From positions 249,635 to 313,634 of the forward strand of contig LFCR01000004.1 in the NCBI GenBank assembly GCA_001189215.1: a stretch of 64,000 nt of DNA, given 5' to 3'. Source of the DNA: Parcubacteria bacterium C7867-008 (GTDB lineage: Bacteria; Patescibacteriota; Minisyncoccia; Phycocordibacterales; Phycocordibacteraceae). Each line of letters starts with the position of its first letter. Within the stretch, counting starts at the first letter, position 1. The notes beneath the pieces were generated by a model that was not told where the DNA came from, did no database searches, and saw nothing but the letters and a program-made list of their open reading frames with translations. Shown here piece after piece: positions 14,813 through 54,168 of the stretch. The position numbers were made by a program, and so were the translations under genes.

Positions 14813-16801
14813 ATGGCAATTGCACAAGGTTCTATATTCGAAGGACCAATCACCGTTATTCGATCAGGTAAAGGATTCTTTAAGATTCCTGACTCCGAAG
14901 AGGAGCTCTTTGTACCAGGTGAAAACCTTGGCACCGCTTTTCCGGGAGACACCGTAAAGATCCAGGTATCTGGAACTAACACCGATCCTAAGTCTGCTGA
15001 GATTCGTTCCACCGGCAATGTACTCAGCGTTGTTAAGCGTGCACGTGAGACCTTTGTGGGGACTATCGTTCCTTCAGACCCGGCGAATGATTTCGGTCTT
15101 CCGGGACAATTCTTCCTGATGCCAGACTTTAAGAAGATGTATACGCCATTCCTTATGGTGGGAGACTCTATGCCGGTTGGCCAGAAGGTAGTTGCACGGT
15201 TTGAAGCATGGGAGAAAGGCCAGCTACGTCCTAGCGCTTCACTCGTTGAGATCATTGGTCCAGCGGGGGTACATGAGACAGAAATGCGTGCACTCGCTCT
15301 GTCACAAGGATTCAGTTCTAACTTCCCTCCTGGCGTAGAGAAAGAAGCAGCTGAACTTGATACTAGCGGTAAAGATCAACTTGCCACTGAAGTTGAGGCT
15401 GCGGTTACTTCTGGCGCACGTCGCGATTTCCGTACTACAACGACATTTACGATCGACCCGTACGACGCGAAGGACTTCGACGATGCTCTTTCAGTTCGTG
15501 AACTTACTGATGGAAATACGGAGATTGGTGTACACATTGCGGATGTATCCTTCTATGTTCGCCCTGGTACTGCTATCGACGATGAGGCACGTGAGCGCGC
15601 AACGTCTGTGTACCTTGTAGATCGGACCATCCCAATGCTTCCAGAGGTACTTTCAAATAATCTCTGTTCCCTTAATCCGAACGAAGATCGTCTCGCGGTA
15701 TCTGCCGTGTTCGTGCTTAATAAGAACGCAGAGATTGTTGAGGAATGGTTTGGTGAAACAGTGATCCATTCAGACAAACGCTTCACATACGAGAACGCAC
15801 AGGAAGTTCTCGACAATAATGAGGGTGAATACCTAAAGGAACTTGTTACCCTTCGTGATCTTGCAGATAAGATCCGTGCTCGTCGTGTTGCAAAGGGTGC
15901 TATCGCATTTGATACCCCAGAGATCAAGGTAAAGCTTGATGAGAACGGTAAGCCTATTGAAGTACTTCTTAAAGAGCGTCGTGCAACAAACCTCCTCATT
16001 GAAGACTTCATGCTCCTTGCAAACGAGCATGTGTCTGAATACCTCACCAAGAAAGGTGAAGCTGCTGGTCTTGAAGGCAGTGTTGTCTATCGTGTACACG
16101 ATGTACCGGATGCTGATCGTATTGAGAACCTTACGCAGTTCCTCAAAGTACTTGGGTACCACCTCGAATCTCAGAACGGAAAGGTTAAGGGTGCCGCTAT
16201 CAATGCGCTCCTTGATAGTGTGGTTGGAAAGCCTGAGGAGTATCTCATCAAAGTCTCTGCACTTCGTTCAATGGCGAAAGCGATATACAGCACTAAGAAT
16301 ATTGGACACTTCGGTCTCGCCTTTGAGTTCTACTCACACTTCACCTCCCCTATTCGCCGGTATCCAGACCTTCTCACCCACCGCATGGTTAAGCACTATG
16401 CAGAGCGTGAAAAGATCACCAAGACTGAAATTGCAGAACTCGAAGGTCTTGCACAACACTCAAGCGAACGAGAGGTATCAGCAGCTGAAGCAGAGCGTGA
16501 CTCTGTAAAGATGAAGCTGGTTGAATTCATGGCCGATAAGGTTGGTGAAGAATTTGATGCAGTGATCTCAGGTGTATCTGATCGCGGTCTATACGTAGAG
16601 CTTACAGAGACTCATGCAGAAGGACTCCTAAATGTGCGCGGCCTCGGTGATGATTACTTTGATCATGATCAGAAGCGGTACCGTCTTGTTGGTCGTCGTA
16701 CTAAGAAAGAATACGTTCTTGGTAATCCGATTCGTGTGAAGCTCATTGCCGCTCGTGTGCAGGATAAGGAACTGGATTTTGCACTTGCTGAGAATAATTA
16801 A
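14813..16801 (+). CDS. rnr: RNase R / RNase II-family 3'-5' exoribonuclease (ORF opens at a GTG at 14801)
   Basis: RNB domain motifs (FTIDPYDAKDFDDALS; HFGLAFEFYSHFTSPIRRYPDLLTHR) and a C-terminal S1 domain. Confidence 0.88.
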   Translation: MAIAQGSIFEGPITVIRSGKGFFKIPDSEEELFVPGENLGTAFPGDTVKIQVSGTNTDPKSAEIRSTGNVLSVVKRARETFVGTIVPSDPANDFGLPGQFFLMPDFKKMYTPFLMVGDSMPVGQKVVARFEAWEKGQLRPSASLVEIIGPAGVHETEMRALALSQGFSSNFPPGVEKEAAELDTSGKDQLATEVEAAVTSGARRDFRTTTTFTIDPYDAKDFDDALSVRELTDGNTEIGVHIADVSFYVRPGTAIDDEARERATSVYLVDRTIPMLPEVLSNNLCSLNPNEDRLAVSAVFVLNKNAEIVEEWFGETVIHSDKRFTYENAQEVLDNNEGEYLKELVTLRDLADKIRARRVAKGAIAFDTPEIKVKLDENGKPIEVLLKERRATNLLIEDFMLLANEHVSEYLTKKGEAAGLEGSVVYRVHDVPDADRIENLTQFLKVLGYHLESQNGKVKGAAINALLDSVVGKPEEYLIKVSALRSMAKAIYSTKNIGHFGLAFEFYSHFTSPIRRYPDLLTHRMVKHYAEREKITKTEIAELEGLAQHSSEREVSAAEAERDSVKMKLVEFMADKVGEEFDAVISGVSDRGLYVELTETHAEGLLNVRGLGDDYFDHDQKRYRLVGRRTKKEYVLGNPIRVKLIAARVQDKELDFALAENN

Positions 16802-30299: not shown

Positions 30300-32465
30300 T
30301 TATCCGTTCACAATCGCAAGTGCACGAGTTGCTGCAAGCTTTGCGCCAGTCATACCAGCGGAGTAGCTTGAATCGATAGCGGTTGCAAGAGACGAGACGA
30401 GACGCTCGAGGAAGTTCGTTGCACAGTCTGAGGTGATGCGTGCAATCTCTGGGTGACACGGAGTGCCGTCCATACGTGCACGATAGGCATCATCAAGTGC
30501 ACAGACTGCATGTGCAAGGAATTCCTGTGCATCACCACCCGTACGATTTACGGTACGAAGGGTGCCGAATACCTGTTCACGATCTCCTGAAAGGAGTGCG
30601 CCAAGGAAGCCGGAGATATCATCTGAATACGTGAGTACTTCTGTGGGTGCAGTAACAGGTGTTGGTGCTACCTGAGGCAGTACTTCTTCCTGAACCACTG
30701 GCTTTGCGGTACGTGGTGCCATGTCTCCATCATACGATGGTACTGATGTCTCTTGTACCTGTTCTAGGTGAGGAGTGAATACCATACCTGACTCGCGGGA
30801 TAGACCTTTTACAATGTCATCAATCGTGAGTGCTTCACCAGACGCAAAGGACTTGAATCCATGCTGCTGGAGCTGTTGTGCCGGAGCCTGTGGAGCTGCT
30901 GCGATCTGTACTGGCTCGATGTGTGCAACTGGAGCAGGTTCATATGTTGGAACAGGTTCAGGTGCGTATACCGGCTCAGGTTCAACTGCCGTGTCTGCGT
31001 TGATTGCTTCCTGTACGTTTGCACCGAATGTCTTAGCACGACGCAGTAGCAGTGGCATACCTGCAAAGAGTATCAGGTATGCTGCTGCACCGCTCCAAAG
31101 CACGAGAGTGATCCAGTAGATCGCAGTGCCAACCGGACCAAGCTCTAGACCGGTATACGGAATCTGAGAGAGGTACACGGATGCAAGTGGCTGTGAGGAT
31201 GCGAGCGTTACGTGCGGACGACTACGCCCACCTCCGCCATGACCTCCACCTCCGCCACCTCCTCCACTATCAGTGTTAATGGTGACTTCCGCCTTACACT
31301 TCGGGTTCGAGGTATCACCAGGAACACTCAGTTGATATGAGGTGTTTGATGTTGGATTAACAACCTTAGTACCGTTAAGTGGTACGGTCTCACCATTAAG
31401 AGTTGCAGACGTTACGTCCTGTGTAGTCCAGGTAAGGAGAACAGCATCACCTTCATCGACAGAAGTCTTGTCTGCGGTAAGCAGTACACACTTTCCGCTA
31501 CCTCCGCCTCCTCCAGGAGGAGTTGTTGGTGGTGTGTTAGTAACAGTTACGGTAACTGTACAAGGATTGCTTCCAACAGCATCAGGCACGGTTGCGACAT
31601 ACGTAGTGTTTGCACTAACAGGAGTAACAGCAACTGATCCAAATGGAATCTGCGTAAAGGTACCAACACCATTGTTGATGGTTATTGATGTCGCATTCGC
31701 AGATGTCTGCCATGAGAGCTGTACCGTCTCACCTGGAGTGATGTTTGTCTTACTTGCACTCAGCGCAAGACACTTGGGTACTTCAGGTATTACTGGTGGG
31801 ATAACTGGTGGGATAACTGGTGGAATTACTGGTGGAATTACTGGTGGAATTACTGGAGTGGTTGGAATTTCCGGCGGAGTCGTAATAATTGGAGGTTGTA
31901 GTGGAATTTCCGGCGGCACTAGTGGTGTTGTTGGTAGCGTACAACACGGAGGCGTGTCGATGATTACTGGGGGTGTTGGAGGGACCTCGGGAGGCACTAT
32001 CGGTGTAGTCGGCAGAGTACAACACGGAGGGGTATCAACAATAACGGGTGGTGGCAGAACAGGCTCCTCTATAACGGGAGGAGTGGTTGGTAGCGTACAA
32101 CACGGGGGTGTGTCTACGATCACTGGCGGAGGAAGCACAGGTGGCTCTGGGACCGGAGGTGTTGTTGGGATAGTACAACACGGAGGTGTGTCGACAATAA
32201 CCGGTGGTGGAAGTGCCGGTGGTTCTGGTTCTGGCGCTGGAGGTAGCGGAATTGGTGGAGGCGGTAGCGGAATTGGTGGAGGTGTTGTTGGGATAGTACA
32301 ACACGGAGGGGTATCAAATACCTGAGCCATCACCTTATCTGGTGATGTAATACCCGTAGCAAATGCTACGGTCATACCAACTGAAAGTACAGCGAGCACT
32401 GCGAACAACCCCGTTCGAAACGGATGCACCTGCGCGCGTGGGTTGTGTTCTTGTGTAGACTCCAT
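30300..32465 (-). CDS. Large Pro-rich repeat surface protein (721 aa): signal peptide, 6x DTPPCCT[IL]PTTP repeats, Ig-like domains, IPYTG + TM helix, long C-terminal intracellular domain
   Basis: N-terminal hydrophobic leader. Repeats DTPPCCTIPTTPP... and PPVIPPVIPPVIPPVIPPVIP. A Gly run SGGGGGGGGHGGGG. IPYTGLELGPVGTAIYWITLVLWSGAAAYLILFAGMPLLLRRAK is followed by about 280 more residues. Confidence 0.7.
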   Translation of the reverse strand: MESTQEHNPRAQVHPFRTGLFAVLAVLSVGMTVAFATGITSPDKVMAQVFDTPPCCTIPTTPPPIPLPPPPIPLPPAPEPEPPALPPPVIVDTPPCCTIPTTPPVPEPPVLPPPVIVDTPPCCTLPTTPPVIEEPVLPPPVIVDTPPCCTLPTTPIVPPEVPPTPPVIIDTPPCCTLPTTPLVPPEIPLQPPIITTPPEIPTTPVIPPVIPPVIPPVIPPVIPPVIPEVPKCLALSASKTNITPGETVQLSWQTSANATSITINNGVGTFTQIPFGSVAVTPVSANTTYVATVPDAVGSNPCTVTVTVTNTPPTTPPGGGGGSGKCVLLTADKTSVDEGDAVLLTWTTQDVTSATLNGETVPLNGTKVVNPTSNTSYQLSVPGDTSNPKCKAEVTINTDSGGGGGGGGHGGGGRSRPHVTLASSQPLASVYLSQIPYTGLELGPVGTAIYWITLVLWSGAAAYLILFAGMPLLLRRAKTFGANVQEAINADTAVEPEPVYAPEPVPTYEPAPVAHIEPVQIAAAPQAPAQQLQQHGFKSFASGEALTIDDIVKGLSRESGMVFTPHLEQVQETSVPSYDGDMAPRTAKPVVQEEVLPQVAPTPVTAPTEVLTYSDDISGFLGALLSGDREQVFGTLRTVNRTGGDAQEFLAHAVCALDDAYRARMDGTPCHPEIARITSDCATNFLERLVSSLATAIDSSYSAGMTGAKLAATRALAIVNG

Positions 32466-32604
32466 AGATTCAGTTGATTCGCTCTGGTAAATAATGATTG
32501 GTGAAATAAGCCCCTGCCGCTTGTGCGGCGTACAAAAAAGGGAGAGTAGTGGCGGCGGGTTGTTTCAAGACCCGCCGCACACCAAGATGAAGTTACCTTC
32601 TCGA

Positions 32605-33645
32605 TCAGTTGAACGTGAAGGGCGTCGCGATCAGGCGATGCTCAGGCCCATAGGACCCGGTGGCCGCCTTGCCATTCGAGTAGAGCGGCTTTCCGTCCGG
32701 CTTCTCGAGGTCGACGCAGGCGATCACGACCTGCCACTGCAGGTCAGGTGGCCCGAAGATGCTGACCGTCTGTTCTTCTTCAACGAAACGGACTTCGTTG
32801 CTGCCAACCCCCGAATTCACATCGAGGTTCTTGACCGAAGTGATGGTGCCGTCGTCGATCAAGCGAAGGACGTGAGCTTCCGGTTCGCGGAAGCTGCAGT
32901 TCTTGGACTCGCAGTCCTTGCTGAAAGGCTTCTTCTGCCCACCGGGCAGTTGAATCGTCAGCGGACACTTACTGAGCGTCTTGAGGTCATGGTCTCCCAC
33001 CACCTCGTAACGGAACACGCGCGAGCGCGGCGGAAGGCGATAGACGAGCTCCACGCAGTGGATCTCGACGACGACTCCCTCCGGTTCATGGTGTTCACCA
33101 CGCTTCGGGTTAGAGCAGTCCGGGAACATAACGTTGTCGCCGTTGTGCCAGATATAGGTCTCGGTCGGAGAGAGCTTGCGGTGCATGCAGCCGAGGATGG
33201 TTTGATATCCGCCGTCCTGCGCATGCAGGCAGTCCATGCTCCACTCGGTCGCGCGTTCTGCGGCAGTGGGCACTCGCCGCTGGAAGTGCTCGACGTAGGC
33301 GATCGTTCCTTCGAGGGTCAGGCCGGGTGCTTTGACCCGGAAAGATTCCCAGTAGTTCCGAATGCTGGCGCAAGACCCATCGGTCTTGCAGCGTTCGGGA
33401 TCGATCACGGCGTTGTAGTCGCTGGTGCGCTTGTAGACCGCGCGCATCTTCTTGGCCAGATCTTGCGGGGACGTGTTGCCCCGAAGAAACGGCAGATTGT
33501 GCTCGCGCTGTGACGTGGAAGTCACTTCCGCGAGAATCGAAGAAGACACGGCAGTGACTGCCATGCGTTCCGCCATCGTCCCTGCAGACGCCGCCCCCGC
33601 CGTGAAGGCGAAGAGCAGCGCCAGGGCGGTGAGCTTGAGCTTCAT
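32605..33645 (-). CDS. Secreted hypothetical protein (346 aa) encoded by markedly GC-richer DNA
   Basis: Signal peptide MKLKLTALALLFAFTAGAASA. GC-rich third codon positions (ctc/gcc/ctg/gcg) unlike neighbours. Multiple Cys. Confidence 0.55.
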   Translation of the reverse strand: MKLKLTALALLFAFTAGAASAGTMAERMAVTAVSSSILAEVTSTSQREHNLPFLRGNTSPQDLAKKMRAVYKRTSDYNAVIDPERCKTDGSCASIRNYWESFRVKAPGLTLEGTIAYVEHFQRRVPTAAERATEWSMDCLHAQDGGYQTILGCMHRKLSPTETYIWHNGDNVMFPDCSNPKRGEHHEPEGVVVEIHCVELVYRLPPRSRVFRYEVVGDHDLKTLSKCPLTIQLPGGQKKPFSKDCESKNCSFREPEAHVLRLIDDGTITSVKNLDVNSGVGSNEVRFVEEEQTVSIFGPPDLQWQVVIACVDLEKPDGKPLYSNGKAATGSYGPEHRLIATPFTFN

Positions 33646-33757
33646 CTCTTTTCTCCCTGTTGCCGCCCCGTAGGGCGGACTGGTGAAAGGTTCAGGTTTC
33701 CCTCCCTTGCGGGTGAGTCTCGTACAATTGCTTGCAACGAGCGATCTGACCAGAGCA

Positions 33758-34417
33758 CTAGGCTCCGATCAGGTCGCTCTTCACAAGGTTCGCCGTAACG
33801 ACGAAGCGATCAGACTTGGTACCGAATGAGTTACAGGTTGCAAGAGTAAGCTTGCTTCCAGTAACGACGAGCGGAATTGAGTCAGACTCTGCATCTGCCT
33901 TTACGACGGTCTCAACGGCATATTCATACACATGGTCTGAACCAATGACCTTGATACGGTCGCCGGGCTTCAGATCCTGAATGCCATCGAAGGCCTTGAA
34001 TGCGGGATTGTTCACAATCGGCAGATAACTTGAGTGGCCAAATATGATTACATTCCCTGCCTCCCCAAGATTTGATGAAGACGGGTATCGGACAGCACCT
34101 TTGAGGAGTGCGTTGTCCAACACCGATACTTCAGATGAATCTGGGTTCGATACAGTAACAGAGAGCTTGATACTTGGGATCTCAATCTTGGTAGGTGACT
34201 CCGGACGAGTAGTTACGGCCTGTATAGCAGATGCTGTCAGGTTGGTAGCTACTTTTACCGGAGCCACAGGAACGAGATCCAGAGCAATAAGGGAGCTATA
34301 TGAGGTGAGGAATACCAATGCGAAAGCAACCATGAAGCTCCACTTCTTGGTTGAAACCTTCTGCCCGGCCTGCACGCTCTTAGCGGCGACCTTGATTATT
34401 GGTCCTTTTGTTGCCAT
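33758..34417 (-). CDS. Sortase-family transpeptidase
   Basis: N-terminal TM anchor; catalytic motifs IIFGHS (His) and TLATC (Cys, TLxTC) with a downstream Arg (RFVVTANL). Confidence 0.75.
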   Translation of the reverse strand: MATKGPIIKVAAKSVQAGQKVSTKKWSFMVAFALVFLTSYSSLIALDLVPVAPVKVATNLTASAIQAVTTRPESPTKIEIPSIKLSVTVSNPDSSEVSVLDNALLKGAVRYPSSSNLGEAGNVIIFGHSSYLPIVNNPAFKAFDGIQDLKPGDRIKVIGSDHVYEYAVETVVKADAESDSIPLVVTGSKLTLATCNSFGTKSDRFVVTANLVKSDLIGA

Positions 34418-41422: not shown

Positions 41423-42112
41423 ATGAAATCCCTCGCTACTCGTAACGCCATTCTGGCACTGGTTATCACCCTGCTCATTATTGGCTCGGTGGTATATGCC
41501 GTTAATTACTTGGATCGTCAGCGCGTTGCTGAACTTTCTTCTATCCAGAATCAACTGGCTACAGACACTCTTTCTGTCGAGACCCAGTTCGCACTTCTTG
41601 AGTCTGCGCCCTGTGAAGATATATCTGAAGGCAACACCCTTTCTCAGGAGGTATCGAATCTTGGTGAAAAGCTTTCTACCGCAGAGAGTCGTTTGGGTGC
41701 CACAGATGAACAAGTAATCCAGCTTAAGAATCAGTACACCTTGCTTGAGATACGTGACTATCTTCTCACCAAGCGACTTGCAGAAGCATGTAACTTCAAA
41801 CCAACAGTTGCCCTATACTTCTACTCAAACATTCCAGGCGCATGTACTGATTGTGACCGCGCAAGTTATGCACTCTCCTACCTCCATGATCAGAACCCAA
41901 ACCTTCGGGTGTACTCTTTCGACTACAACCTGAACCTCGGCGCACTTAAGACACTTATTGCGGTTGAGAAGGTTAAACCTGAATTCCCTGCCTTTGTAAT
42001 TGAAGGAAAGCGGGCCTATGGATTTACTACCATAGATGACTTTAAGAGTTCCTTCCCTAAGGACTTCTTTGCAACTTCAACGACCGCAACAAGTACCAGC
42101 AAAAAGAAGTAA
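41423..42112 (+). CDS. Membrane-anchored hypothetical protein with CxxC motif (229 aa)
   Basis: N-terminal TM, coiled-coil-like segment, GACTDCDRAS CxxC. Follows the GT2 gene by 21 bp. Confidence 0.45.
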   Translation: MKSLATRNAILALVITLLIIGSVVYAVNYLDRQRVAELSSIQNQLATDTLSVETQFALLESAPCEDISEGNTLSQEVSNLGEKLSTAESRLGATDEQVIQLKNQYTLLEIRDYLLTKRLAEACNFKPTVALYFYSNIPGACTDCDRASYALSYLHDQNPNLRVYSFDYNLNLGALKTLIAVEKVKPEFPAFVIEGKRAYGFTTIDDFKSSFPKDFFATSTTATSTSKKK

Positions 42113-44128: not shown

Positions 44129-45421
44129 CTAGAAGGGCGAGAATATAGGATTTATATTAACAATCACCGTTGCAGACGTTGCTCCATCAATACAGTCCAC
44201 ACGGTAGACGGATTGTTTCGTGATTGGAGGTGTTGGGAAAGATGCTGACGCTAGACAGGATGCTGGAGTAATAACTCTATTTACTCCTGGTCCCGTTACC
44301 GTACAGGTCTGATTAAGACCAGAACCAGTGACGGTAAGAGTTGCTGATGTACCGGTGCGTACACGACTTGGTGTGGCCTTTATAGAGACCGTGGGACTGG
44401 TACAAGTGTCTGCGGGCACCGTACACGCCCCATCAGTCTTAGTGCCAGATACTAGTCCACCACAACCATCAGAACAGCTGTCTCCTACACATGTATTCGT
44501 CTTACAAGATGTATCTGCTACGCAACCAGGGTCTGGATCGGTACAGGCAGGATAGACACCAACTTGTCCTGTATCAGCACACGTTGGGGCGTCATAACAT
44601 GCAGGCCAAACTCCCAACTGACCACTGTCTGCACACGTTGGCGGTATTGGATCTGTACACGCTGGATACACACCTACTTTTCCGAAATCAGCACACGTTG
44701 GTGGGTCAAAGGGAACACAGGCAGGGTATGTTCCAACCAAACCAAGGTCTTCACAAGTTGGAAGTGGACACGCGGGGTATGGGCCTGAAGAGCCGTTTGA
44801 ACATCCTGGTAGGGGTAGCGGACACGCCGGGTATGGTCCTACAGAACCATTGGTACAGGTTGGTGGTGGGAGTGGACATGCGGGATACGGACCAGCAGAA
44901 CCGTTAGTGCATTCTGGTATAGGGAGTGGGCATGCCGGGTATGGACCAGGTGATCCGTTTGTACATGAAGGCGGCGGTAGCGGACACGCCGGGTATGGTC
45001 CTACAGAACCATTGGTACAGGTTGGTGGTGGGCAAAGAGAATCAGATGGTGTTGCAGCTGAACACGCTCCGTCACACTGAATCGTTCCTGAACCAGTCAT
45101 TCCGCAACTGTTTCCACCGGAAGAACATGAGTTGCCTGCGTTAGCTACACAGGCAGGAGGATCAGGAATAAATACTTCCCAACAATAATCAGCCGGGCAG
45201 AATCCTGGTAGCCCGCTGCATGGGCCATAGCATTCAGATCCCGGAGGCGGCCCACCACATTCAGGAGGACCAATAAAGAGACCGAACCAGGTTTGGAAGC
45301 AACCTGCCCAATGTCCAGATTCTGCACGCGCCATATTCGAACTTATGGCCATGGCAAATAGGAGTATCGCTATAGCTGCTACGTATATACAAGCACGGAG
45401 TGAGATGAATCGGCGGATCAT
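44129..45421 (-). CDS. Secreted Cys-rich PACP-repeat protein A (430 aa) with conserved C-terminal Ig-like domain
   Basis: Signal/anchor [28 protein letters not shown]. Repeats C[TS]NGSxGPYPACPLP and CADxGxxGxYPAC. C-terminal ~90 aa conserved with paralogs B and C, ending NINPIFSPF. Confidence 0.7.
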   Translation of the reverse strand: MIRRFISLRACIYVAAIAILLFAMAISSNMARAESGHWAGCFQTWFGLFIGPPECGGPPPGSECYGPCSGLPGFCPADYCWEVFIPDPPACVANAGNSCSSGGNSCGMTGSGTIQCDGACSAATPSDSLCPPPTCTNGSVGPYPACPLPPPSCTNGSPGPYPACPLPIPECTNGSAGPYPACPLPPPTCTNGSVGPYPACPLPLPGCSNGSSGPYPACPLPTCEDLGLVGTYPACVPFDPPTCADFGKVGVYPACTDPIPPTCADSGQLGVWPACYDAPTCADTGQVGVYPACTDPDPGCVADTSCKTNTCVGDSCSDGCGGLVSGTKTDGACTVPADTCTSPTVSIKATPSRVRTGTSATLTVTGSGLNQTCTVTGPGVNRVITPASCLASASFPTPPITKQSVYRVDCIDGATSATVIVNINPIFSPF

Positions 45422-46500
45422 AGGGCAATGTCGATTAGTGTTCCAAATGCTGGAAGACCAGGAATAGTGCTTCCGGAACTGTTAGCCGTGAGGCCATACT
45501 TCCAAAGAGTATCTCCAGTCGTAGAGTGTTGAATGAAGTAGAGTGCAGAACTTCCAAGCACGAGAGATGGGCTCTTCGCGTCTACATACGTGGCAATCTC
45601 TCGTACTCCTTGTGGTGTAAGCAGTCCAAGATGAGCTGTAGCTGTATCGGGAGTAACCCATGCCACCAGCGCTGCATCACGTGATACAGCTGGTGCTGGA
45701 TATGGCACCGGTGTTGCAATAACGTTTGGTGCATAGATCGAACTTACCCCATTATCAATGTTGTATTTAATGATTCCCTGTTCTGAGAACCACGCGACTT
45801 CAGAATCACTTATGAAGAAGGGTGAAAAGCCAGCACCTATGTAGCGTGGTGTTGTGGTTCCTTCTGATAGAAGCATCACACGCGTTGGAAATATGGCTTT
45901 GTTAGTATCGTGAGCAGTTTCAATACCCGCTCGACTCGCCTGTGCAAAAGCAACGCGCATACCATTCGGTGATATTGCTGCACTAGTTTTTACATCTTCT
46001 GAACCATACAGAAGCGTAGTGTCACCTCGTACTTCATAGATGTTTTCAGGTCCAAGTTGGATTGATGCTACGTGATTGCCACGGCGTGAAATAGATAGTG
46101 TTGAGAAAGTACTACCAAGACTTACCGGGGCATAGTTGCCATCGGTCATGCGGTAGAGCGTATTTACCTTATCTTGCTGGTAGAGGAAGAACCCATCTTT
46201 AAGATCTGCTGGCAGGAGACTCGCCGTTAGTGGTCGGAATAGATCCGGCATGTACGTAGCGAATATTATAATAATCGCAGTAAGCACGACTGCTATTGAG
46301 GCAATGATAAATGCCCATGTTGCAAAGCGATTCTTATGAGGCATCGAATGCAGTGGTACAGAATGGCTTGGGGTTTCTTCTTGCATATACCTAAAGCCTA
46401 CCACCATCTGAGCAGATGAAGATCGGGTCTGTGAATTAGTCCTCGTCTTCTGCAGCACCAACTCCCCCATTCGCTGCAGCAGTTTGCAGAGACTCAACAA
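45418..46500 (-). CDS. Membrane-anchored PD40/TolB-like beta-propeller protein A (start probably an internal Met near 46407)
   Basis: TM helix [22 protein letters not shown]40-type motif [14 protein letters not shown]. Its stop overlaps the start of Cys-rich A in ATGA. Confidence 0.6.
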
Positions 46501-47392
46501 TTGAATCCAAGTTTCCGAGCATTATCTTTGGGAGATTGTGCCAAGACTCTTTTAGACGGTGGTCGGTAATACGGTCTTGAAGGAAGTTATAGGTACGAAT
46601 CTTCTCTGAGCGATCACCGGTTCCGATCTGTCCAGCTCGTAGTGCTGCGTGTTTCTTGGCCTCTTCTTCTTCATACAGTGTCTCAAGCTTTGCTGACAGA
46701 ATTTCCATAGCCTTGAGTCGGTTATTAAGCTGGGACCGCTCGCTGGTCGAACGTACGTCGATACCGGTTGGTTTGTGAATAAGACGGACTGCGGACTCTA
46801 CTTTGTTCACATTCTGCCCTCCTGCTCCACCCGAGCGAGAAAACTCCATTTCAATATCTGCTGGATTGATTTCAAACTTTGGCTTTGTACGTATAGGAAG
46901 TGAAGCGACTGAAGCAGTTGAGGTATGAATACGTCCAGACTTCTCGGTAAGAGGGACACGCTGTACGCGATGAACCCCCGTTTCATAACGAAGGGCTGCA
47001 TATGCCTCAGGACTTTCAATTTCAAGTGTCAGTTCATCTATGATTCGTACACGCCACCGCTTAGACTCTGCGTATTTCTGATACATCTCTTTCAGTTCCT
47101 GTGCGAAGAGTGTCGCCTCGTCACCGCCAGCGCCAGCACGGAACTCAAGTACCACTGCCTTAGGAATACTTTCCTCTTCTTTTTCTTTATCTAAAATATC
47201 TTCAATAGTTGAAAGAATTTCTTTCTGGCGTGCATCGATATGATCCTCATCTTCTGCAGCCATCTCAAGCAATACGGCATCCTCACCTGCTGCTTCACGA
47301 CCACTACTACGCTGCGCCTCAAGACGTTCGAATTCCTCCGCAAGATATGCGGTCTTATGATTGTTCTTGAATTCGGATGAGTATTCGATCAT
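46436..47392 (-). CDS. prfA: Peptide chain release factor 1 (compact)
   Basis: GGQ motif [24 protein letters not shown]. Tripeptide anticodon region [17 protein letters not shown] (PxT type, RF1-like). Confidence 0.8.
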
Positions 47393-47462
47393 AGATATAT
47401 GGTAGCAAAATAAATATGAAAGAGAGGTCCTGTTTGAAACAGGACCTCTCTTTCATGCGTCG

Positions 47463-47717
47463 TTACTTAGCCTTTGCTGCCGCAGCACGCTGCTTGAAGC
47501 GTTCAACGCGACCAGTCTTGTCGAGGGAACGATCCTCACCAGTATAGAATGGGTGAGACTTGCTGGAGATTTCAACCACTACCTTAGGGTATTCCTTGCC
47601 CTCGTATGTACCGGTTTCGGTAGTACGGATGGTGGATCCAATAAGGAAAACCGCGCCCGAAGACATATCTTCGAACATCACAGTGCGGTAGCCCTCTGGG
47701 TGAATATCTTTCTTCAT
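47463..47717 (-). CDS. rpmE: 50S ribosomal protein L31
   Basis: MKKDIHPEGYRTVMFEDMSSGAVFLIGST...HPFYTG matches bL31. Confidence 0.88.
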   Translation of the reverse strand: MKKDIHPEGYRTVMFEDMSSGAVFLIGSTIRTTETGTYEGKEYPKVVVEISSKSHPFYTGEDRSLDKTGRVERFKQRAAAAKAK

Positions 47718-47734
47718 AGTGGAATGACTATATC

Positions 47735-47770
47735 AAACAGAACCGCGCCAGGCAATGCCTGGCGCGGTTC
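47735..47770 (-). terminator. Perfect palindromic hairpin between Cys-rich B and rpmE
   Basis: gaaccgcgccaggcaATGcctggcgcggttc, with U-rich tract following on the minus strand. Confidence 0.6.
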
Positions 47771-47782
47771 TGTACTAACTGC

Positions 47783-49144
47783 CTAGAATGGCGTGAACTT
47801 AGGGATGAGATTCACAATAATGGTTTCTGTTGCCCCTCCTTCGGCGCAGAGCACTGTATAGACTGACTGCTTAGTGATTGTTGGGGTCGTAATTGTTGCT
47901 GAGAGATTGCAAGAATTTGGTACCAGAATTTGACTCACACCCGGACCGGTGACCGTACAACCGAGATTGAGACCTGATCCAGTGATGGTAATGGTAGATG
48001 TACCACCAACCTGCACGCGAGATGGAGATGCCTTGATGGTTACTGTTGGACCTGTGCAAGACATAGGAGGTCCTCCTGAAGGAACCTCACACTCGTCGAT
48101 TGTTTTTGTACCGGATGCAGTACCTCCACAACCATCTGCGCAAGTATCACCTGCGCAAGTATTTGCCTTGCAGGAAAGGTCAGGTACACACCCAGGGACT
48201 GGATCACTACACGCTGGGTATGTACCAATCTGGCCAAAATCTTCACAGGTTGGTTCGGGCGGTTCTGGCGGAAGACCTGGGTCTGGATAGCAGAACGGAT
48301 ACGTGCCAAGAAGACCAAGATCAGCACAAGTCGGGGTTGGTGGTGCATGACACGGAGGCGGACCTATAAAACCCAAATCTTCACACGTATCAACTACTGG
48401 CGGTGGCACTATTGGACAGGTTGGATATGGGCCAGGTGATCCGTTTGTACACTCTGGCGGGACTGGTGGATCCACCGGGCATGACGGGTATGGGCCTGGT
48501 GAACCGTTTGGACAAACTGGTGGCTCTGTAGGCCCAACAGGACATTCTGGGTAAGGGCCAGGCGAACCATTACTACAAGGCGGGTAGTAACAAGCTGGAT
48601 AGGTACCAAGTTGCCCGTAATCTGCACAAGTGGGCGCATCGTAACATGCTGGGTATGTTCCTAGCTGTCCGCTGTCTGCACAGGTCGGTGTTGGAGGGAC
48701 GGGGCATAGTCCCCCATCAGGAGTAACAGCATCACAATTCCCATCGCAATCTATAGTGCCGGAACCTCTCATACCACAAGCATTTGCTCCTGAAGAACAA
48801 GAATTACCACTCGTTGAAACGCATGATGGTGGTGGCGTAGGCGAGCAATCTCCACTTGGAAGAGTGAAGAAACCAAAAGATTCGCAGGTTATTTTATCTA
48901 TACAACCCTGACTGTTAGAACATTCATACGCGCCACCAAACCAGGTACCACACACATCTACACAAAAATACTCTTGCCCAGGAGGACAAGGGAATGGAAC
49001 TGCAAAAGGACAAATTTCACCCACCTGTCCAACTGCGACTTTTGGAAGCACTGTATCTGAAAAGAGCCCTATCGCGAAAATAGCTGCAGCCAACACATAG
49101 ACAGCAATCGGACCATACGAACTAGTGTGCAACAGATTCTTCAT
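47783..49144 (-). CDS. Secreted Cys-rich PACP-repeat protein B (453 aa)
   Basis: N-terminal hydrophobic leader, repeats CTNGSPGPYPxCP and CADxGQLGTYPACY, conserved C-terminal domain ending LIPKFTPF. Confidence 0.7.
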   Translation of the reverse strand: MKNLLHTSSYGPIAVYVLAAAIFAIGLFSDTVLPKVAVGQVGEICPFAVPFPCPPGQEYFCVDVCGTWFGGAYECSNSQGCIDKITCESFGFFTLPSGDCSPTPPPSCVSTSGNSCSSGANACGMRGSGTIDCDGNCDAVTPDGGLCPVPPTPTCADSGQLGTYPACYDAPTCADYGQLGTYPACYYPPCSNGSPGPYPECPVGPTEPPVCPNGSPGPYPSCPVDPPVPPECTNGSPGPYPTCPIVPPPVVDTCEDLGFIGPPPCHAPPTPTCADLGLLGTYPFCYPDPGLPPEPPEPTCEDFGQIGTYPACSDPVPGCVPDLSCKANTCAGDTCADGCGGTASGTKTIDECEVPSGGPPMSCTGPTVTIKASPSRVQVGGTSTITITGSGLNLGCTVTGPGVSQILVPNSCNLSATITTPTITKQSVYTVLCAEGGATETIIVNLIPKFTPF

Positions 49145-49146
49145 AA

Positions 49147-50007
49147 TTACGGTAGTAAGGAGTTAACACCAAGAGACACCGGAATAGTTGTCACCTTTTC
49201 AACCACATCGCCCTCAACTGCATGTCGCCATATTTCAGGACCTTTAGGATTCTTACGAAGTTCGTATAAGTTTGTATTAGTAAGAATTGGATTAGTAAAT
49301 CGCTTAAAGGTGCGGAGATTCGTAAATGACGATGCACTTATTCGACTTAGGATAATATCGCCACCAATCTTATTGGACCACATAACAAGGGAGTGGTCTG
49401 GAGAGTACTGAACCTTAGAATCCAGCATAGATCCTTCTGGATATTTAAAGACGAGCTTTGCAGACTTTGTGGTGAGATCATACATAACAACACCTGCAAC
49501 GCTGAAATAACTTATGTGGGTGTTATCTACAAATACAGGAGCATAGCCGTGTGCAATTACCGCGCCCTCTGGATTCGATACGTTGCGCAACACAATATTC
49601 CAATCATTAGGTGAAATCTTCTTACCCGTAAATAACTGGGTTATTTGATCCGAAGGGGTTTTGTATGAAACTACAACATTTGCCCCATCTGGGGATGTAC
49701 TTTCTATAGCCGTGAGGGCACCTGTACCACTATCAGCTTTGAGACCAAGGTTCGAGAGATGGTATGACTTGCTATTTTTATTGTCCCCTACAAAGAAATG
49801 AACTGATCTTAGGTCTTGCGGTACGGAAAGAGCGAGTACTGCCCCATCAATAACTTTCGTAAATGGTTTGTAGAAGAAGTACGCGGCAACAGAGCACCCT
49901 AGAAGAAGTAGAACTAAACCAACAACAAAAACTGCTACAAGCAATTTACGTGATGGCTTTGCAGGAGAGGTAGGTATCTCGTAGGTCGGAGCGGTCACTT
50001 CATCCAT
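49147..50007 (-). CDS. Membrane-anchored PD40/TolB-like beta-propeller protein B (286 aa)
   Basis: TM LLVAVFVVGLVLLLLGCSVAAYFFY, motif VQYSPDHSLVMWSNK. Stop TAA, then TT, then the ATG of Cys-rich B (TAATTATG). Confidence 0.6.
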   Translation of the reverse strand: MDEVTAPTYEIPTSPAKPSRKLLVAVFVVGLVLLLLGCSVAAYFFYKPFTKVIDGAVLALSVPQDLRSVHFFVGDNKNSKSYHLSNLGLKADSGTGALTAIESTSPDGANVVVSYKTPSDQITQLFTGKKISPNDWNIVLRNVSNPEGAVIAHGYAPVFVDNTHISYFSVAGVVMYDLTTKSAKLVFKYPEGSMLDSKVQYSPDHSLVMWSNKIGGDIILSRISASSFTNLRTFKRFTNPILTNTNLYELRKNPKGPEIWRHAVEGDVVEKVTTIPVSLGVNSLLP

Positions 50008-50133
50008 AGACGTTTATAATTTCAACTATATCCTAATAATCAAACATACTCATTAGGTCATGGGGAGAACGCATAGACGCTTCCAACAAGCGTCATTTGC
50101 CTTACTAAGGAATTCGAATTGGCTTTACAAACC

Positions 50134-51663
50134 CTAGAAGGGGCTGAATGTTGGCAGAATATTTACAATTACCGTTGTGCTTGTCGGAGTCTCCGCACAC
50201 GTGACGGTGTAGGTAGATTGCTTGGTTATTGCAGGAGTCGTAATACTTGCTGCAATGTTACAGCTCGTCGGGGTAAGAACTTGAGTTACTCCTGGACCAG
50301 TTATGGTACAGGTCTGATTGAGTCCTGAGCCAGTAACCGTAATGGTTGTTGTGTTACCGGGACGGACTCGTGATGGTACTGCAGTTACAGAGACTGATGG
50401 ACTTGTACAGGCACCGCCACCAGGTGGCACTACACATACCCCATCGGTCTTAGTCCCTGACGCGAGTCCTCCGCAACCGTCTGCGCAGCTATATCCCACA
50501 CATGTATTTGCCTTGCACGAGAGATCAGGAACACAATCTGAAGGCGCATCGTAACAATACGGATAACTTCCAAGCTGACCAGAATCTGCACAGGTAGGGT
50601 CTGGTGTTGTAACTGGGCAGGTTGGATACGGACCAGGTGATCCGTTTGTACATGATGGCGGTGGAGCAACTGGGCATGAAGGATATGGACCAGATGACCC
50701 GTTACTACACGTTAATGGGCATGTTGGATACGGACCAGGTGATCCGTTTGTACATGAAGTGGGTTCGTCGTAATAACATGCGGGAAAGAGACCGAGCATA
50801 CCGAAATCAGCACATGTTGGAGGAGCAAAACATGCTGGATACGTTCCAAGTAAGCCGGAGTCAGCGCAGGTAGGAGGTAGCGGACAGGATGGGGCTGGGC
50901 CTGCTGAGCCGTTTGTACAACCGGGTGCAATTGGGCAACTAGGATATGGGCCTGCTGAACCATTTGCGCAGGGTGGGTCATAGCAGAATGGGTAGGTACC
51001 AAGCTGCCCAGAATCTGCACAAGTTGGTGCATCGTAACAAGCTGGGTACGTTCCTAGCTGTCCGCTGTCTGCACAGGTAGGAGGTAGCGGGCAGGATGGA
51101 TACGGGCCAGAAGAACCATTTGTACAGCTACAACTAGACTCTGGGGGAGCGCTCACAGAACATGAGCCACTGACGATAGTTCCTGTATTACTCATCCCGC
51201 AGGAGTTTGTTGCGGTACAAGATACTGAACAACTCATGGTTCCACTAACTGAACCTCCACAACCATCAGAGCAGGTGTCAGTAGTACAAGTACTTGCTGC
51301 ACATGAGGAAGATGGAGTACATGCAGGAGGTGTATATACACAGGCATACTCATGGGTGTAGTAGTATCCTGCATCTCCACTTCCACCTGCACACACAAGA
51401 TTGCTACATGTTCTACCAACATTAGCAGCATTACAGGAGAAACTACAATTCCCGGTGCTATGACACGGAGCAAAGGTCTCACCAAAATTCTCATCACTGT
51501 CTACGCCGCTCTCTGGGAACGTCATGACAAGTTCGTATGTGCCTGCTGCGTCTGCAGATTGTGTATGAGTGTAAGCAAAATAGACTATGACTGCTCCAGC
51601 GAACACCGCCAACACCAGTAGTAAGCTACTCCGAAGCCGTGGACTAAGTGCTTTCATATACAT
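50134..51663 (-). CDS. Secreted Cys-rich PACP-repeat protein C (509 aa)
   Basis: Leader MYMKALSPRLRSSLLLVLAVFAGAVIVYFA, the same repeat types, conserved C-terminal domain ending ILPTFSPF. Confidence 0.7.
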   Translation of the reverse strand: MYMKALSPRLRSSLLLVLAVFAGAVIVYFAYTHTQSADAAGTYELVMTFPESGVDSDENFGETFAPCHSTGNCSFSCNAANVGRTCSNLVCAGGSGDAGYYYTHEYACVYTPPACTPSSSCAASTCTTDTCSDGCGGSVSGTMSCSVSCTATNSCGMSNTGTIVSGSCSVSAPPESSCSCTNGSSGPYPSCPLPPTCADSGQLGTYPACYDAPTCADSGQLGTYPFCYDPPCANGSAGPYPSCPIAPGCTNGSAGPAPSCPLPPTCADSGLLGTYPACFAPPTCADFGMLGLFPACYYDEPTSCTNGSPGPYPTCPLTCSNGSSGPYPSCPVAPPPSCTNGSPGPYPTCPVTTPDPTCADSGQLGSYPYCYDAPSDCVPDLSCKANTCVGYSCADGCGGLASGTKTDGVCVVPPGGGACTSPSVSVTAVPSRVRPGNTTTITVTGSGLNQTCTITGPGVTQVLTPTSCNIAASITTPAITKQSTYTVTCAETPTSTTVIVNILPTFSPF

Positions 51664-51665
51664 AA

Positions 51666-52667
51666 TTATATGCTCCCTAGTAGAACTCTTCCTATACCAA
51701 GATTCCCCGGTAGGCGCCCAACACTAGCAGATTCCTGGCCAAAGGGCTGCTTAAACAATTCTGCATATCCGTGAGCAATACTAATTATGAAAAACCCATC
51801 ATTACCAAGTGCTAATGAGCGCATTGAACCAGAAATAGCTGTTGGTGGAAGTGGTTCTGCAGAATCTGTATTCACCTTATACGCAAGAAGTGTTTTTGAC
51901 CCCTTACCGTACCACGCAATAACTGAATGGTCGGGCGACACTAATGCGGTTGCGATAACTCGACCACCAACATCAGGCACCAACACCTTTGTGACGCCTG
52001 TAGTGAGGTCCATTACCGCAAGTCCTGCTGGCGCAATCCACGCTACATGTGTCTGATCTATAAAGAATGGTGATACCCCCTTGCCGAGATTTATGGTTGA
52101 ACGAGATGCTGGTTCATACATAATAATTTCCCAACGCTTACGATCGAGTGGAAGCAAAGCACCTTCTGCAGGAGAAATGAATGAAGAAATTTCAAGTGAT
52201 TGAGCAAACACGACTCGTGTGCCATCCGGTGAACGGCTAATGCCTATACGCGGGAATGAATCTTTGAATAAAACTTTCTCATCAAGTGATACTGAGAAAT
52301 TACCGCCACCGCTACGTGTTATCCGTGCTTCGCCGGCAGCAGTCTTCTCTGCTGAAACAAGTACCCCTTCAAGAGCCTCTGTTTCCCTAATTGCTTTATC
52401 AAAGCTATATAAGGTGGTTTTTGTTTGATCAGAATCAGCAATAAATGTTGCTCCTTTAAGTTCTGTGGGTATTTTTATTTGCCCAAGCAACGCGCCTATA
52501 TATCCTTTTAGTGGCGTAAATATAAATGCTGCTGCTACCAAGACCAAAATGAGCACTACGGCCCCAATAATTATTAGGTACCTGTTTTTATGAGAAGGTT
52601 CTTGCGCTAGTGGAGGCGTTAGAGATGAAAAATGAGTCGGTCCTACTCCATCTGATTGATCAGGCAT
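51666..52667 (-). CDS. Membrane-anchored PD40/TolB-like beta-propeller protein C (333 aa)
   Basis: TM YLIIIGAVVLILVLVAAAFIF, motifs SRSPDGTRVVFAQS and LVSPDHSVIAWYGK. Junction to Cys-rich C is again TAATTATG. Confidence 0.6.
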   Translation of the reverse strand: MPDQSDGVGPTHFSSLTPPLAQEPSHKNRYLIIIGAVVLILVLVAAAFIFTPLKGYIGALLGQIKIPTELKGATFIADSDQTKTTLYSFDKAIRETEALEGVLVSAEKTAAGEARITRSGGGNFSVSLDEKVLFKDSFPRIGISRSPDGTRVVFAQSLEISSFISPAEGALLPLDRKRWEIIMYEPASRSTINLGKGVSPFFIDQTHVAWIAPAGLAVMDLTTGVTKVLVPDVGGRVIATALVSPDHSVIAWYGKGSKTLLAYKVNTDSAEPLPPTAISGSMRSLALGNDGFFIISIAHGYAELFKQPFGQESASVGRLPGNLGIGRVLLGSI

Positions 52668-52728: not shown

Positions 52729-54168
52729 CTATCCACCGAGCGTATCTATGTCACTCTGGAACTGGTTAACAAATCCCATCACCCCATCACCGTAAAATGC
52801 ATAGGCTGGATTACCGGCATTACCCCATCCTGCAAAGTACCTGAGTGCTGCAAGACGTTCTGCGGAAGGTGTTTGAGCAGTTGCGCCGTTATCTGCCATA
52901 AGAAGTGCTGTTGCAGTGAAGGCATCAAGATTGTTCCAAGGGTTTGCTGGAGAATTTGGGTGTCCTGCAAGTTGCGCTACACGACTCTCATAGATAACCC
53001 ACGTAGAAGGAATAAATTGTCCTGGGCCCATTGCACCACCATATCCATAGGAAGGCGGACATGAGACAGGCTGGGTGTATGGGTCAATACCAAGCTTTGC
53101 GGTTATGGCGAGGAACGGATCAACATCGCGTGTCGGCTTCATCACTCCTGGAAATGGTGTGCCCGTATTCTTTCCCTTTCCATCGCCCTTTGCTGGAGAG
53201 TTAGTTAGGAGACACTGACCAACATTTTTACCTAGATCTGTTTCCTGCTTGAGGATGGCCAGAATAAGTGCGGGACGTACACCGGTTGCAGCACCGGCTT
53301 GTTTTGCAAGGGTAATAGCAACGGGAAGACTAATGGCTCCGTTTCCGCCAGCAAGTGCGAAGAGTTCTGCACGAATCTGTCCCGCGGTCTTTTGCTGTGC
53401 AGCGATAATACTTTGATAGGTTGCTTCCTGACTCTTCGTCTTGGCAAGCAGTACCTTCTTCTGATCTTGTTGATCCTTAATCTTCTGTTGTTCTGCTGCT
53501 TGAATCCCCTTCAAACGCTCAGTCTCTATCTTCTGGTCTTCCAATTGGGACTTCTCAGTTTCAGTCTGACTCTTGGTACGAGTAAGTTCCTTTGAAGATT
53601 CGCCAAGTTGTTGTTTAAGTACGGCGAAAGAATCCAGATCACCAAAGAAACTCGAAACATCCTCCGAAGAGAAGACCAGTTCAACAAGTGAGAAATCATC
53701 TACTTCTCGTGTCTTGCGAACAATCTGTGCAAGAGAGTCTCGCTCATCTGAGAGCCTACCTGTTAAGGTACCGATCGTACTGGCGTGAACCGTAATATTT
53801 TCACCTAGTGCCTGAATTTGGACCTGTGTTGCCTTTATTTGTAGTTGAGACTTCTTAATACCCGCATCAAGAATATTAATGTCTCGTTGAATAGATTGGT
53901 GCTCGCCATTCAATCCTGTGAGGACGGTCTGGGTCTGAGCAATTTGTCCTTCGATTGCATCGAGTTGTGATTGAAGTGCCGCACGACGTGCACCGATATC
54001 GGTTTCTTCTGCACGGGAATAGTATGGAGCAAGCGTACTCGCGAGAATGGCGAGCAGTAGAGCGCTTATAACGAGCGTTGACCAATAGCGTCGCAAGAAC
54101 ATGACCAAATCAGTGTACCACGGCATATATAAGAAAGAGACGCGCCATTGACGCGTCTCTTTCTTCAT
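52729..54168 (-). CDS. Membrane-anchored coiled-coil protein with C-terminal lysozyme-like / lytic-transglycosylase-like domain
   Basis: TM, about 250 aa of coiled coil (EnvC-like architecture), then ILKQETDLG...GGAMGPGQFIPSTW, resembling family-1 LT motifs (E-S...GLMQxMPxT). Confidence 0.45.
   Translation of the reverse strand: MKKETRQWRVSFLYMPWYTDLVMFLRRYWSTLVISALLLAILASTLAPYYSRAEETDIGARRAALQSQLDAIEGQIAQTQTVLTGLNGEHQSIQRDINILDAGIKKSQLQIKATQVQIQALGENITVHASTIGTLTGRLSDERDSLAQIVRKTREVDDFSLVELVFSSEDVSSFFGDLDSFAVLKQQLGESSKELTRTKSQTETEKSQLEDQKIETERLKGIQAAEQQKIKDQQDQKKVLLAKTKSQEATYQSIIAAQQKTAGQIRAELFALAGGNGAISLPVAITLAKQAGAATGVRPALILAILKQETDLGKNVGQCLLTNSPAKGDGKGKNTGTPFPGVMKPTRDVDPFLAITAKLGIDPYTQPVSCPPSYGYGGAMGPGQFIPSTWVIYESRVAQLAGHPNSPANPWNNLDAFTATALLMADNGATAQTPSAERLAALRYFAGWGNAGNPAYAFYGDGVMGFVNQFQSDIDTLGG

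Follow-up and report, generated by a model that had tools for sequence, protein, structure and literature searches.

The window analysed here, by which we mean the whole 64 kb stretch of DNA, comes from Parcubacteria bacterium C7867-008 and carries three copies (A, B and C) of a two-gene unit. In each copy a gene for a membrane-anchored beta-propeller protein (the propeller) is followed directly by a gene for a leader-bearing, cysteine-rich protein (the partner), and the two genes form a real, co-conserved and tightly coupled pair. The partner gene is itself a mosaic, its N-terminal head diverging along with the propeller and its C-terminal tail being most alike within a genome. Our best reading, held tentatively, is that each pair would supply a membrane anchor or receptor together with a secreted, stalked surface protein.

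Co-conservation and coupling of the two genes

Loci on Parcubacteria contigs, taken around close and distant family members, were scanned with a hidden Markov model (HMM) of the propeller and another of the partner tail. Across 15 non-redundant loci, a partner gene directly follows, on the same strand, 23 of the 25 propeller genes that have readable downstream DNA. Twenty of these cases have a complete tail-HMM hit; the other three are cut by a contig end and retain the cysteine motifs. The pairing seen in a preliminary description of this DNA is thus conserved in related genomes, with spacers between the two genes ranging from -4 to +19 nt.

The 16 junction spacers were -4 (five cases), -1, +1, +2 (five cases), +9, +10, +11 and +19 nt. 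In the window, the junctions are TAATTATG for pairs B and C (+2 nt) and ATGA for pair A (-4 nt), exactly as they had been read before. The earlier view that the junction itself was copied is not upheld: six of the eight bases of TAATTATG are the stop and start codons, the pair B orthologue in genome C7867-007 has TAAtATG, and the spacers vary among pairs, so that the identity between pairs B and C is a coincidence. Tight coupling is a trait of the family; the exact junction is not conserved.

Two partner genes, at positions 6480-7526 of locus L018 and 15131-16246 of locus L019, are missed by the public gene calls, with intact ORFs and tail-HMM hits of about E 1e-23; automated annotation may under-call such cysteine- and proline-rich genes. 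A locus search with a close alignment returned three genome loci and one metagenome locus, and a protein search with the tail alignment returned three fragments. Two very short contigs carry other taxonomic labels, namely P0016 (1921 bp), with a partner-like protein labelled Nanoarchaeota archaeon, and P0187 (2064 bp), with a tail-only fragment labelled Chloroflexota bacterium. These labels are probably binning errors; a wider host range is less likely.

Gene order of the cluster

C7867-008 is a metagenome-assembled genome from Hanford groundwater, and the paper that reported it (Nelson and Stegen 2015, PMC4508563) has no mention of cysteine or propeller. The six ORFs of the preliminary description were all recovered on the minus strand, with order and coordinates unchanged. 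The minus-strand order is rplY, a coiled-coil/SLT_2 gene, propeller C, partner C, propeller B, partner B, rpmE, prfA, propeller A, partner A, rpsB and tsf. Propeller C corresponds to AB203_01670 at 100% identity, and AB203_01635 and AB203_01655 match two of the partners. The features of the cluster are as follows:

52729-54168 (-): coiled-coil (EnvC/PcsB-like) protein with an SLT_2/MltB-like lytic transglycosylase domain
51666-52667 (-): propeller C, 333 aa, type C; in the model, a transmembrane (TM) helix (residues 26-50) ahead of a six-bladed TolB/PD40-type ectodomain
50134-51663 (-): partner C, 509 aa, 48 Cys; start 2 nt past the propeller C stop
50134-50409 (-): tail module of partner C
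49147-50007 (-): propeller B, 286 aa, short type
47783-49144 (-): partner B, 453 aa, 40 Cys
47783-48058 (-): tail module of partner B
47463-47717 (-): rpmE
46436-47392 (-): prfA
45418-46386 (-): propeller A, 322 aa; start revised to the ATG at 46386 (MQEETPSH)
44129-45421 (-): partner A, 430 aa, 40 Cys in the mature protein
44532-45032 (-): stalk of partner A, degenerate 54-nt (18-aa) repeats
44751-45032 (-): GPYPxCP-type subregion of the stalk
44532-44708 (-): TCAD-type subregion of the stalk
44129-44404 (-): tail module of partner A, last 91 codons plus stop; four conserved Cys, terminal IxNxxPxFxPF

The start of propeller A was placed at the ATG at 46386 because of the comparison with its C7867-007 orthologue; a longer ORF begins at a TTG at 46500 and overlaps prfA.

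A peptidoglycan hydrolase gene lies just upstream of the cluster in every case. It is the SLT_2 gene in the lineage of the window, and an Amidase_3 plus PG_binding_1 gene in a second lineage (L005, 3446-4987; L006, 2231-3778).

The propeller protein

Each propeller protein starts with basic residues followed by one hydrophobic helix, the arrangement of an N-in, single-pass membrane protein. In the model of propeller C, residues 1-25 are disordered, the TM helix spans residues 26-50, and a short linker leads to a six-bladed, four-stranded beta-propeller, for which TolB is the nearest structure at about 12% sequence identity. The three paralogues align with one another beyond low complexity, with 20-25% identity and BLASTP E-values of 3e-13 (C/B), 4e-14 (C/A) and 2e-8 (B/A).

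The earlier designation as a TolB-like PD40 propeller stands at the level of the superfamily, by profile and by fold, but not at that of the Pfam family, as the three window copies had no Pfam match at E<=1 and reached no Pfam or NCBIfam threshold, PD40 (PF07676) included. A profile of 138 family members, searched against PDB chains, matched TolB chains of many species first (E 1e-9 to 1e-7, two or three stretches each); a 10-sequence profile had no TolB match among PDB chains. The 138-member profile also gave a weak match to a Methanosarcina YVTN/PKD surface-layer protein (E 8e-4). Only six of the 138 members match Pfam PD40 (E<=0.01), and two match Gmad1, the LpqB propeller family. Against 1.84 billion representatives, the 10-sequence profile recovered 384 family clusters (at 50% identity) at E<=1e-3, of which 193 also passed E<=1e-10. 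Among the 150 clusters listed, lengths of 260-345 aa predominate, and the shorter ones are probably fragments. The propeller is therefore a membrane-anchored TolB/PD40-type beta-propeller of a separate, unannotated family that lacks TolB's N-terminal domain.

The [S/T]PDG and SPDH motifs described before are found in copies B and C (SPDG, SPDHS), but copy A has SPNG and SRDAA instead. Conserved polar motifs in copy C are SPDG (residues 146-149), FxDxTH (202-207), SPDHS (244-248) and GND (288-290), which the model places in loops that follow the first (A) strand in each of four successive blades. On one propeller face these loops would surround the central channel, making that face a candidate for binding. 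Propeller B is about 36 residues shorter than copy C; the gap at C residues 109-144 coincides with model strands 112-145, that is, four strands or one blade, and this short form is a common subtype.

The match to TolB raises the question of whether the pair is a remnant or relative of Tol-Pal, with the propeller as the TolB orthologue and the downstream gene in place of pal. TolB is the best match both by structure and by profile, and the propeller gene comes first and its partner next, as in the tolB-pal gene order. However, the N-terminal alpha/beta (TolA-binding) domain of TolB is absent, a TM helix standing there in the model, identity to TolB is only that 12%, and the partner has neither an OmpA-like domain nor a lipobox. 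No tolQ-tolR-tolA was found among the neighbours at any locus examined, in a search confined to these neighbourhoods; the neighbours across all loci are rplY, the peptidoglycan hydrolase gene, rpmE, prfA, rpsB, tsf, GT2 and pheST. Moreover, tolB and pal have been reported only from true diderm genomes with lipopolysaccharide, and bacteria of the Candidate Phyla Radiation (CPR) are described as monoderm (PMC8871954). On domain content, gene context and this diderm-only distribution a Tol-Pal relic was rejected, and we regard it as scarcely credible.

The partner protein

The partners are the most cysteine-rich ORFs longer than 150 aa in the window, with 8.7-9.3% Cys over stop-to-stop segments, and their repeat motifs occur in no other ORF of the 64 kb. 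Each protein (8.8-9.5% Cys) has an N-terminal leader with AxA-type sites, and the cysteine counts of the mature forms are all even: 40 in A, 40 in B and 48 in C. The paralogues are 52-55% identical overall. The leader, the many cysteines and the conserved C-terminal domain of the preliminary description were borne out in each partner; that domain is conserved but falls short of near-identity, with 63-67% over 91 aa and 60-68% over 135 aa.

A common architecture was found in all partners, from N- to C-terminus: the leader; a head of about 60-90 aa, of distinct types; a knot module (SCxxxNSCGMxGSGTIxCDGxCS); a variable middle region; a six-Cys module (CxPDxSCxxNTCxxxxCxDGCGG); and an immunoglobulin (Ig)-like tail of about 90 aa. 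The tail has four conserved cysteines, and every tail ends in [IVL]xPx[FYI]x[EPA][FI]-COOH, the terminal residues being IFSPF in partner A, KFTPF in B and TFSPF in C. Partner A has a type-A head, the knot at residues 98-130, five GPYPxCP and four or five TCAD repeats, the six-Cys module and the tail at residues 340-430; partner B has a type-B head, the knot module, TCAD and GPYPxCP repeats, the six-Cys module and the tail; and partner C has a type-C head, the knot module, about six GPYPxCP and five TCAD repeats, the six-Cys module and the tail. The repeats are degenerate 54-nt units with 60-86% identity; in the stalk of partner A, Tandem Repeats Finder gave a period of 54, 5.1 copies and 69% matches (repeat families D1, D2, D3 and D5). 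The AlphaFold2 model of partner A has a mean confidence (pLDDT) of 70 overall, with 93-97 for the tail, modelled as a generic Ig-like sandwich, and 80-88 for the TCAD repeats.

No partner had a Pfam or NCBIfam match at threshold, the curated sorting-domain, lipoprotein, OmpA and toxin models included. The cysteine modules matched no EGF or LE profile, and nothing among PDB chain sequences matched partner C. Below threshold, the tail has a weak match to a choice-of-anchor Z repeat (E 0.006). Partners A, B and C have no LPXTG-like motif, no C-terminal TM segment and no lipobox.

The GPYPxCP and CADxGxxGxYPAC modules of the preliminary description are present in the window but do not define the family. 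In the C7867-007 orthologues of partners A and B, runs of VVPP or of PDPD/PTPD replace the GPYPxCP repeats, with head and tail kept, and other partners of the family carry CARDB/PKD-like Ig domains in the middle region. Because the C7867-007 orthologues swap the repeats and yet keep head and tail, the middle region is read as a spacer, probably a replaceable stalk rich in proline and cysteine.

Another role considered for the pair is one in which the propeller is a dedicated maturation factor that transiently binds the emerging partner, as a holdase or oxidative-folding scaffold, and then releases it to the wall or the medium. The tight translational coupling and 1:1 gene order would suit this, as would the 40-48 cysteines that must pair correctly and the match between head types and propeller types; a TM-anchored CxxC protein conserved nearby (41423-42112, described below) is a lead only. 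Profile and structure searches, however, revealed no chaperone-like or thioredoxin-like feature in the propeller, a propeller is kept even beside partners with low-cysteine stalks (C7867-007, PD/PT spacers), and no other feature that might hold the partner to the cell is apparent. We hold a maturation role to be decidedly unlikely.

Paralogue types and their positions

Propeller paralogues within a genome share the 20-25% identity given above, against 39-70% for orthologues between genomes, such as 70% between propeller A and 007_A and 55% between propeller B and 007_B. In a codon-aligned comparison of the DNA, the fourfold-degenerate sites between the window tails are saturated (29-40% identity), and the copies are therefore not recent amplifications. 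Recent tandem amplification was ruled out on these two grounds. The earlier proposal of cassette duplication is kept in part: propeller and partner do form one unit present in paralogous copies, but the copies did not arise by recent amplification. Judged from their sequences, the copies represent paralogue types of old origin, at least four in all (A to D below), that recur across genomes:

Type A pairs: win_A, 007_A and L019_1
Type B (short) pairs: win_B, 007_B and L019_3
Type C pairs: win_C, L001_1, L002_1 and L004_1
Type D pairs: L002_2, L018_2 and L019_2

These pairs occupy a conserved frame, rplY-hydrolase-[slot 1]-rpmE-prfA-[slot 2]-rpsB, in which copy number and position vary by genome:

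Window: slot 1, C and B; slot 2, A
L019: slot 1, A and D; slot 2, B
C7867-007: slot 1, B; slot 2, A
L001: slot 1, C; slot 2, none
L002: slot 1, none; slot 2, C and D

An A-type propeller with an A-type head thus lies after prfA in the window and before rpmE in L019. The positions of the pairs are permuted between genomes, and therefore propeller and partner move as a unit.

A conflict system, with a secreted cysteine-rich toxin or bacteriocin and a membrane immunity or receptor protein, would likewise have a secreted, cysteine-rich, variable product in several paralogues and a membrane protein encoded next to it. Here, however, the N-terminal head and the stalk vary and the C-terminus is conserved, the reverse of polymorphic toxins, and the would-be immunity gene lies upstream. 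Pfam and NCBIfam searches found no toxin domain, and the site is stable within a frame of ribosomal and translation genes across divergent genomes, with no signs of mobile elements. The reversed polarity, the missing toxin domain and the stable housekeeping locus led us to reject a toxin-immunity pair as highly improbable.

Mosaic evolution of the partner

Over 18 pairs, similarity between propellers is correlated with similarity between heads (Mantel r 0.76, p 2e-4) and not detectably with similarity between tails (Mantel r 0.10, p 0.12). In five of the six genomes with at least two pairs, the best match of each tail is another tail of the same genome. The A and B tails of C7867-007 have a similarity of 0.92 (90% identical, fourfold sites 57%), with propellers only about 24% identical; within-genome tail similarity is 0.73 in L004, 0.67-0.70 in L019 and 0.66 in L018. 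The window itself shows this only marginally, with 0.67 as compared with 0.64 to the orthologue. This pattern points to episodic gene conversion together with strong purifying selection on the tail, and shows that the paralogues of one cell have interchangeable tails. What calls for a functional explanation is the anomalous tail, rather than the co-divergence of head and propeller.

One such explanation is a scaffold of the envelope or an S-layer-like structure, tied to wall remodelling, in which tails associate mutually or with a shared wall component and propellers tether the layer to the membrane. The within-genome likeness of the tails speaks for it, and so do the matched terminal motif of every tail, the constant position of the cluster behind a peptidoglycan hydrolase gene of either kind and the housekeeping location, which is probably highly expressed; SlaA/SlaB of Sulfolobus is a precedent for a membrane anchor with a separate secreted subunit (PMC6911244). 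Against it, no homology to S-layer families was seen beyond the weak Methanosarcina match, flexible-stalked partners of 320-620 aa do not resemble the usual lattice-forming proteins, and the marginal tail similarity in the window could be explained by passive gene conversion. We consider a scaffold of this kind unlikely.

Proposed function

We propose, tentatively, that the pairs are two-gene modules of the cell surface, old in origin and specific to the Parcubacteria lineage. The first gene would encode an N-in, single-pass protein whose divergent six-bladed propeller ectodomain sits just outside the membrane. The second would be translated from the shared mRNA by termination-reinitiation, giving a Sec-exported, fully disulfide-bonded, rod-like protein without an anchor of its own. 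The propeller would then be the membrane-side receptor or anchor of its cognate partner, and the stalk would carry the partner's free end across the wall to the cell surface, where it would serve adhesion or organise the envelope. Head and propeller would carry the function specific to each pair, and the tail would be the common module of all paralogues in the cell. The partner has none of the known anchors (LPXTG, TM segment or lipoprotein), a lack that a separate anchor, the propeller, would make good. The pairs are co-directional inside rplY-rpmE-prfA-rpsB-tsf, a housekeeping context consistent with constitutive expression.

Several points weigh against this anchor-and-stalk proposal. Export of the partner, cleavage of its signal peptide, disulfide formation and surface exposure are predicted from its sequence, and the head and GPYPxCP repeats of partner A are modelled at low confidence (pLDDT <50). 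The tail is the only partner region conserved family-wide, which would equally fit a conserved contact with the propeller. Neighbouring segments of a single cassette would be expected to co-diverge in any case, so that the co-divergence of head and propeller is not proof of contact. The propeller can also exist alone: L005 has an orphan propeller gene (7674-8606) followed by a malic enzyme gene, and the distant member at L014 (409-2711) has no downstream partner: what follows it is only a secreted ORF of 114 aa, and a partner-like gene (product ending TPKFEEI) lies upstream. Physical binding between propeller and partner is a prediction, as are surface display and the docking end; for the latter, the tail with its invariant aromatic C-terminus would suit a peptide-in-propeller contact, and the head is the part that matches the propeller type.

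A broader possibility, which we find rather unlikely, is a sortase-independent system of surface display and anchoring in ultrasmall monoderm CPR bacteria. Type-specific propellers would hold cognate heads, and interchangeable tails would assemble together, or on a shared wall component, into a common outer structure, the tails being kept matched in each cell by gene conversion and selection. If true, this would be a way to build an adhesive surface of multiple specificities.

Neighbouring features

In the gap that separates rpmE (stop at 47463) from prfA (start at 47392) lies a hairpin (47416-47456, minus strand) whose perfect 19-bp stem is followed by a T-run; it is the strongest terminator-like site within 42-55 kb. 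It would divide the cluster into a part with pair C, pair B and rpmE, perhaps headed by the hydrolase gene, and a part with prfA, pair A, rpsB and tsf.

On the plus strand, 41423-42112 encodes a protein of 229 aa that has a TM anchor at its N-terminus and one CxxC motif (C-T-D-C); it has no Pfam match and no PDB sequence match. An ORF of similar size is found at the same syntenic position in L001, L002, L004 and L018. The protein may be an extracytoplasmic thiol-disulfide oxidoreductase for the cysteine-rich partners, which we offer as a lead only.

A sortase gene (PF04203, E 1e-18) is located at 33758-34417, within 30300-34417 (-). The stretch beside it is GC-rich (57% vs about 48%) and contains two ORFs of 721 and 346 aa, with no Pfam match and no clear C-terminal LPXTG.

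Significance

Parcubacteria are abundant, uncultivated and tiny bacteria, thought to live attached to other cells and likely symbiotic; to our knowledge, almost nothing is known of their surface proteins. No description of the pair was found in literature on Parcubacteria, Patescibacteria or CPR in connection with cysteine-rich, beta-propeller, TolB or concerted evolution, in agreement with the preliminary description, which had not recognised it as a described system. The folds and the logic of an anchor with a secreted protein are known; the pairing, the paralogue types and the mosaic evolution are new.

The module is conserved and multi-copy, and it sits at a housekeeping locus without Pfam or NCBIfam annotation. 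If an anchor with a stalked surface protein is the true reading, it would offer concrete candidates for host contact or envelope functions, a protein pair for binding tests and a marker for comparative genomics. A head that follows the propeller and a tail that is homogenised per genome are, in addition, a testable case of mosaic evolution inside one gene.

Comparison with known systems

TolB is a soluble periplasmic protein with an N-terminal domain, whereas the propeller would be held by an N-terminal TM helix; Pal is an OmpA-like lipoprotein, and the partner is not. Sortase-anchored proteins have an LPXTG motif, a hydrophobic segment and a basic tail, which the partners lack although a sortase gene is present in the window. 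In polymorphic toxins a conserved N-terminal delivery region precedes a variable C-terminal toxin, with the immunity gene downstream, and the pair has the reverse arrangement.

Like the C-terminal domains of type IX secretion system (T9SS) substrates and the choice-of-anchor domains, the tail is a conserved beta-sandwich (about 90 aa) placed at the very C-terminus, after highly variable passengers. It differs in having no hit at the curated thresholds and in ending in a free aromatic residue, not in a cleaved signal or TM segment; neither T9SS nor an outer membrane is expected in the host. Propellers are also combined with cysteine-rich modules in the YWTD-EGF region of the low-density lipoprotein receptor and in the nidogen propeller bound to a laminin LE module, but these are eukaryotic, usually lie in one chain and have no detectable sequence relationship to the pair.

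SlaA/SlaB has no sequence or fold relationship to the pair, SlaB being a TM segment with a coiled coil and beta-sandwiches, and the rod-like element is here in the secreted protein and not in the anchor. The likeness holds only at the level of genes: a membrane-anchored subunit is encoded together with one that is secreted separately, the anchor would determine how far from the membrane the outer component lies, and the outer component is the more variable of the two.

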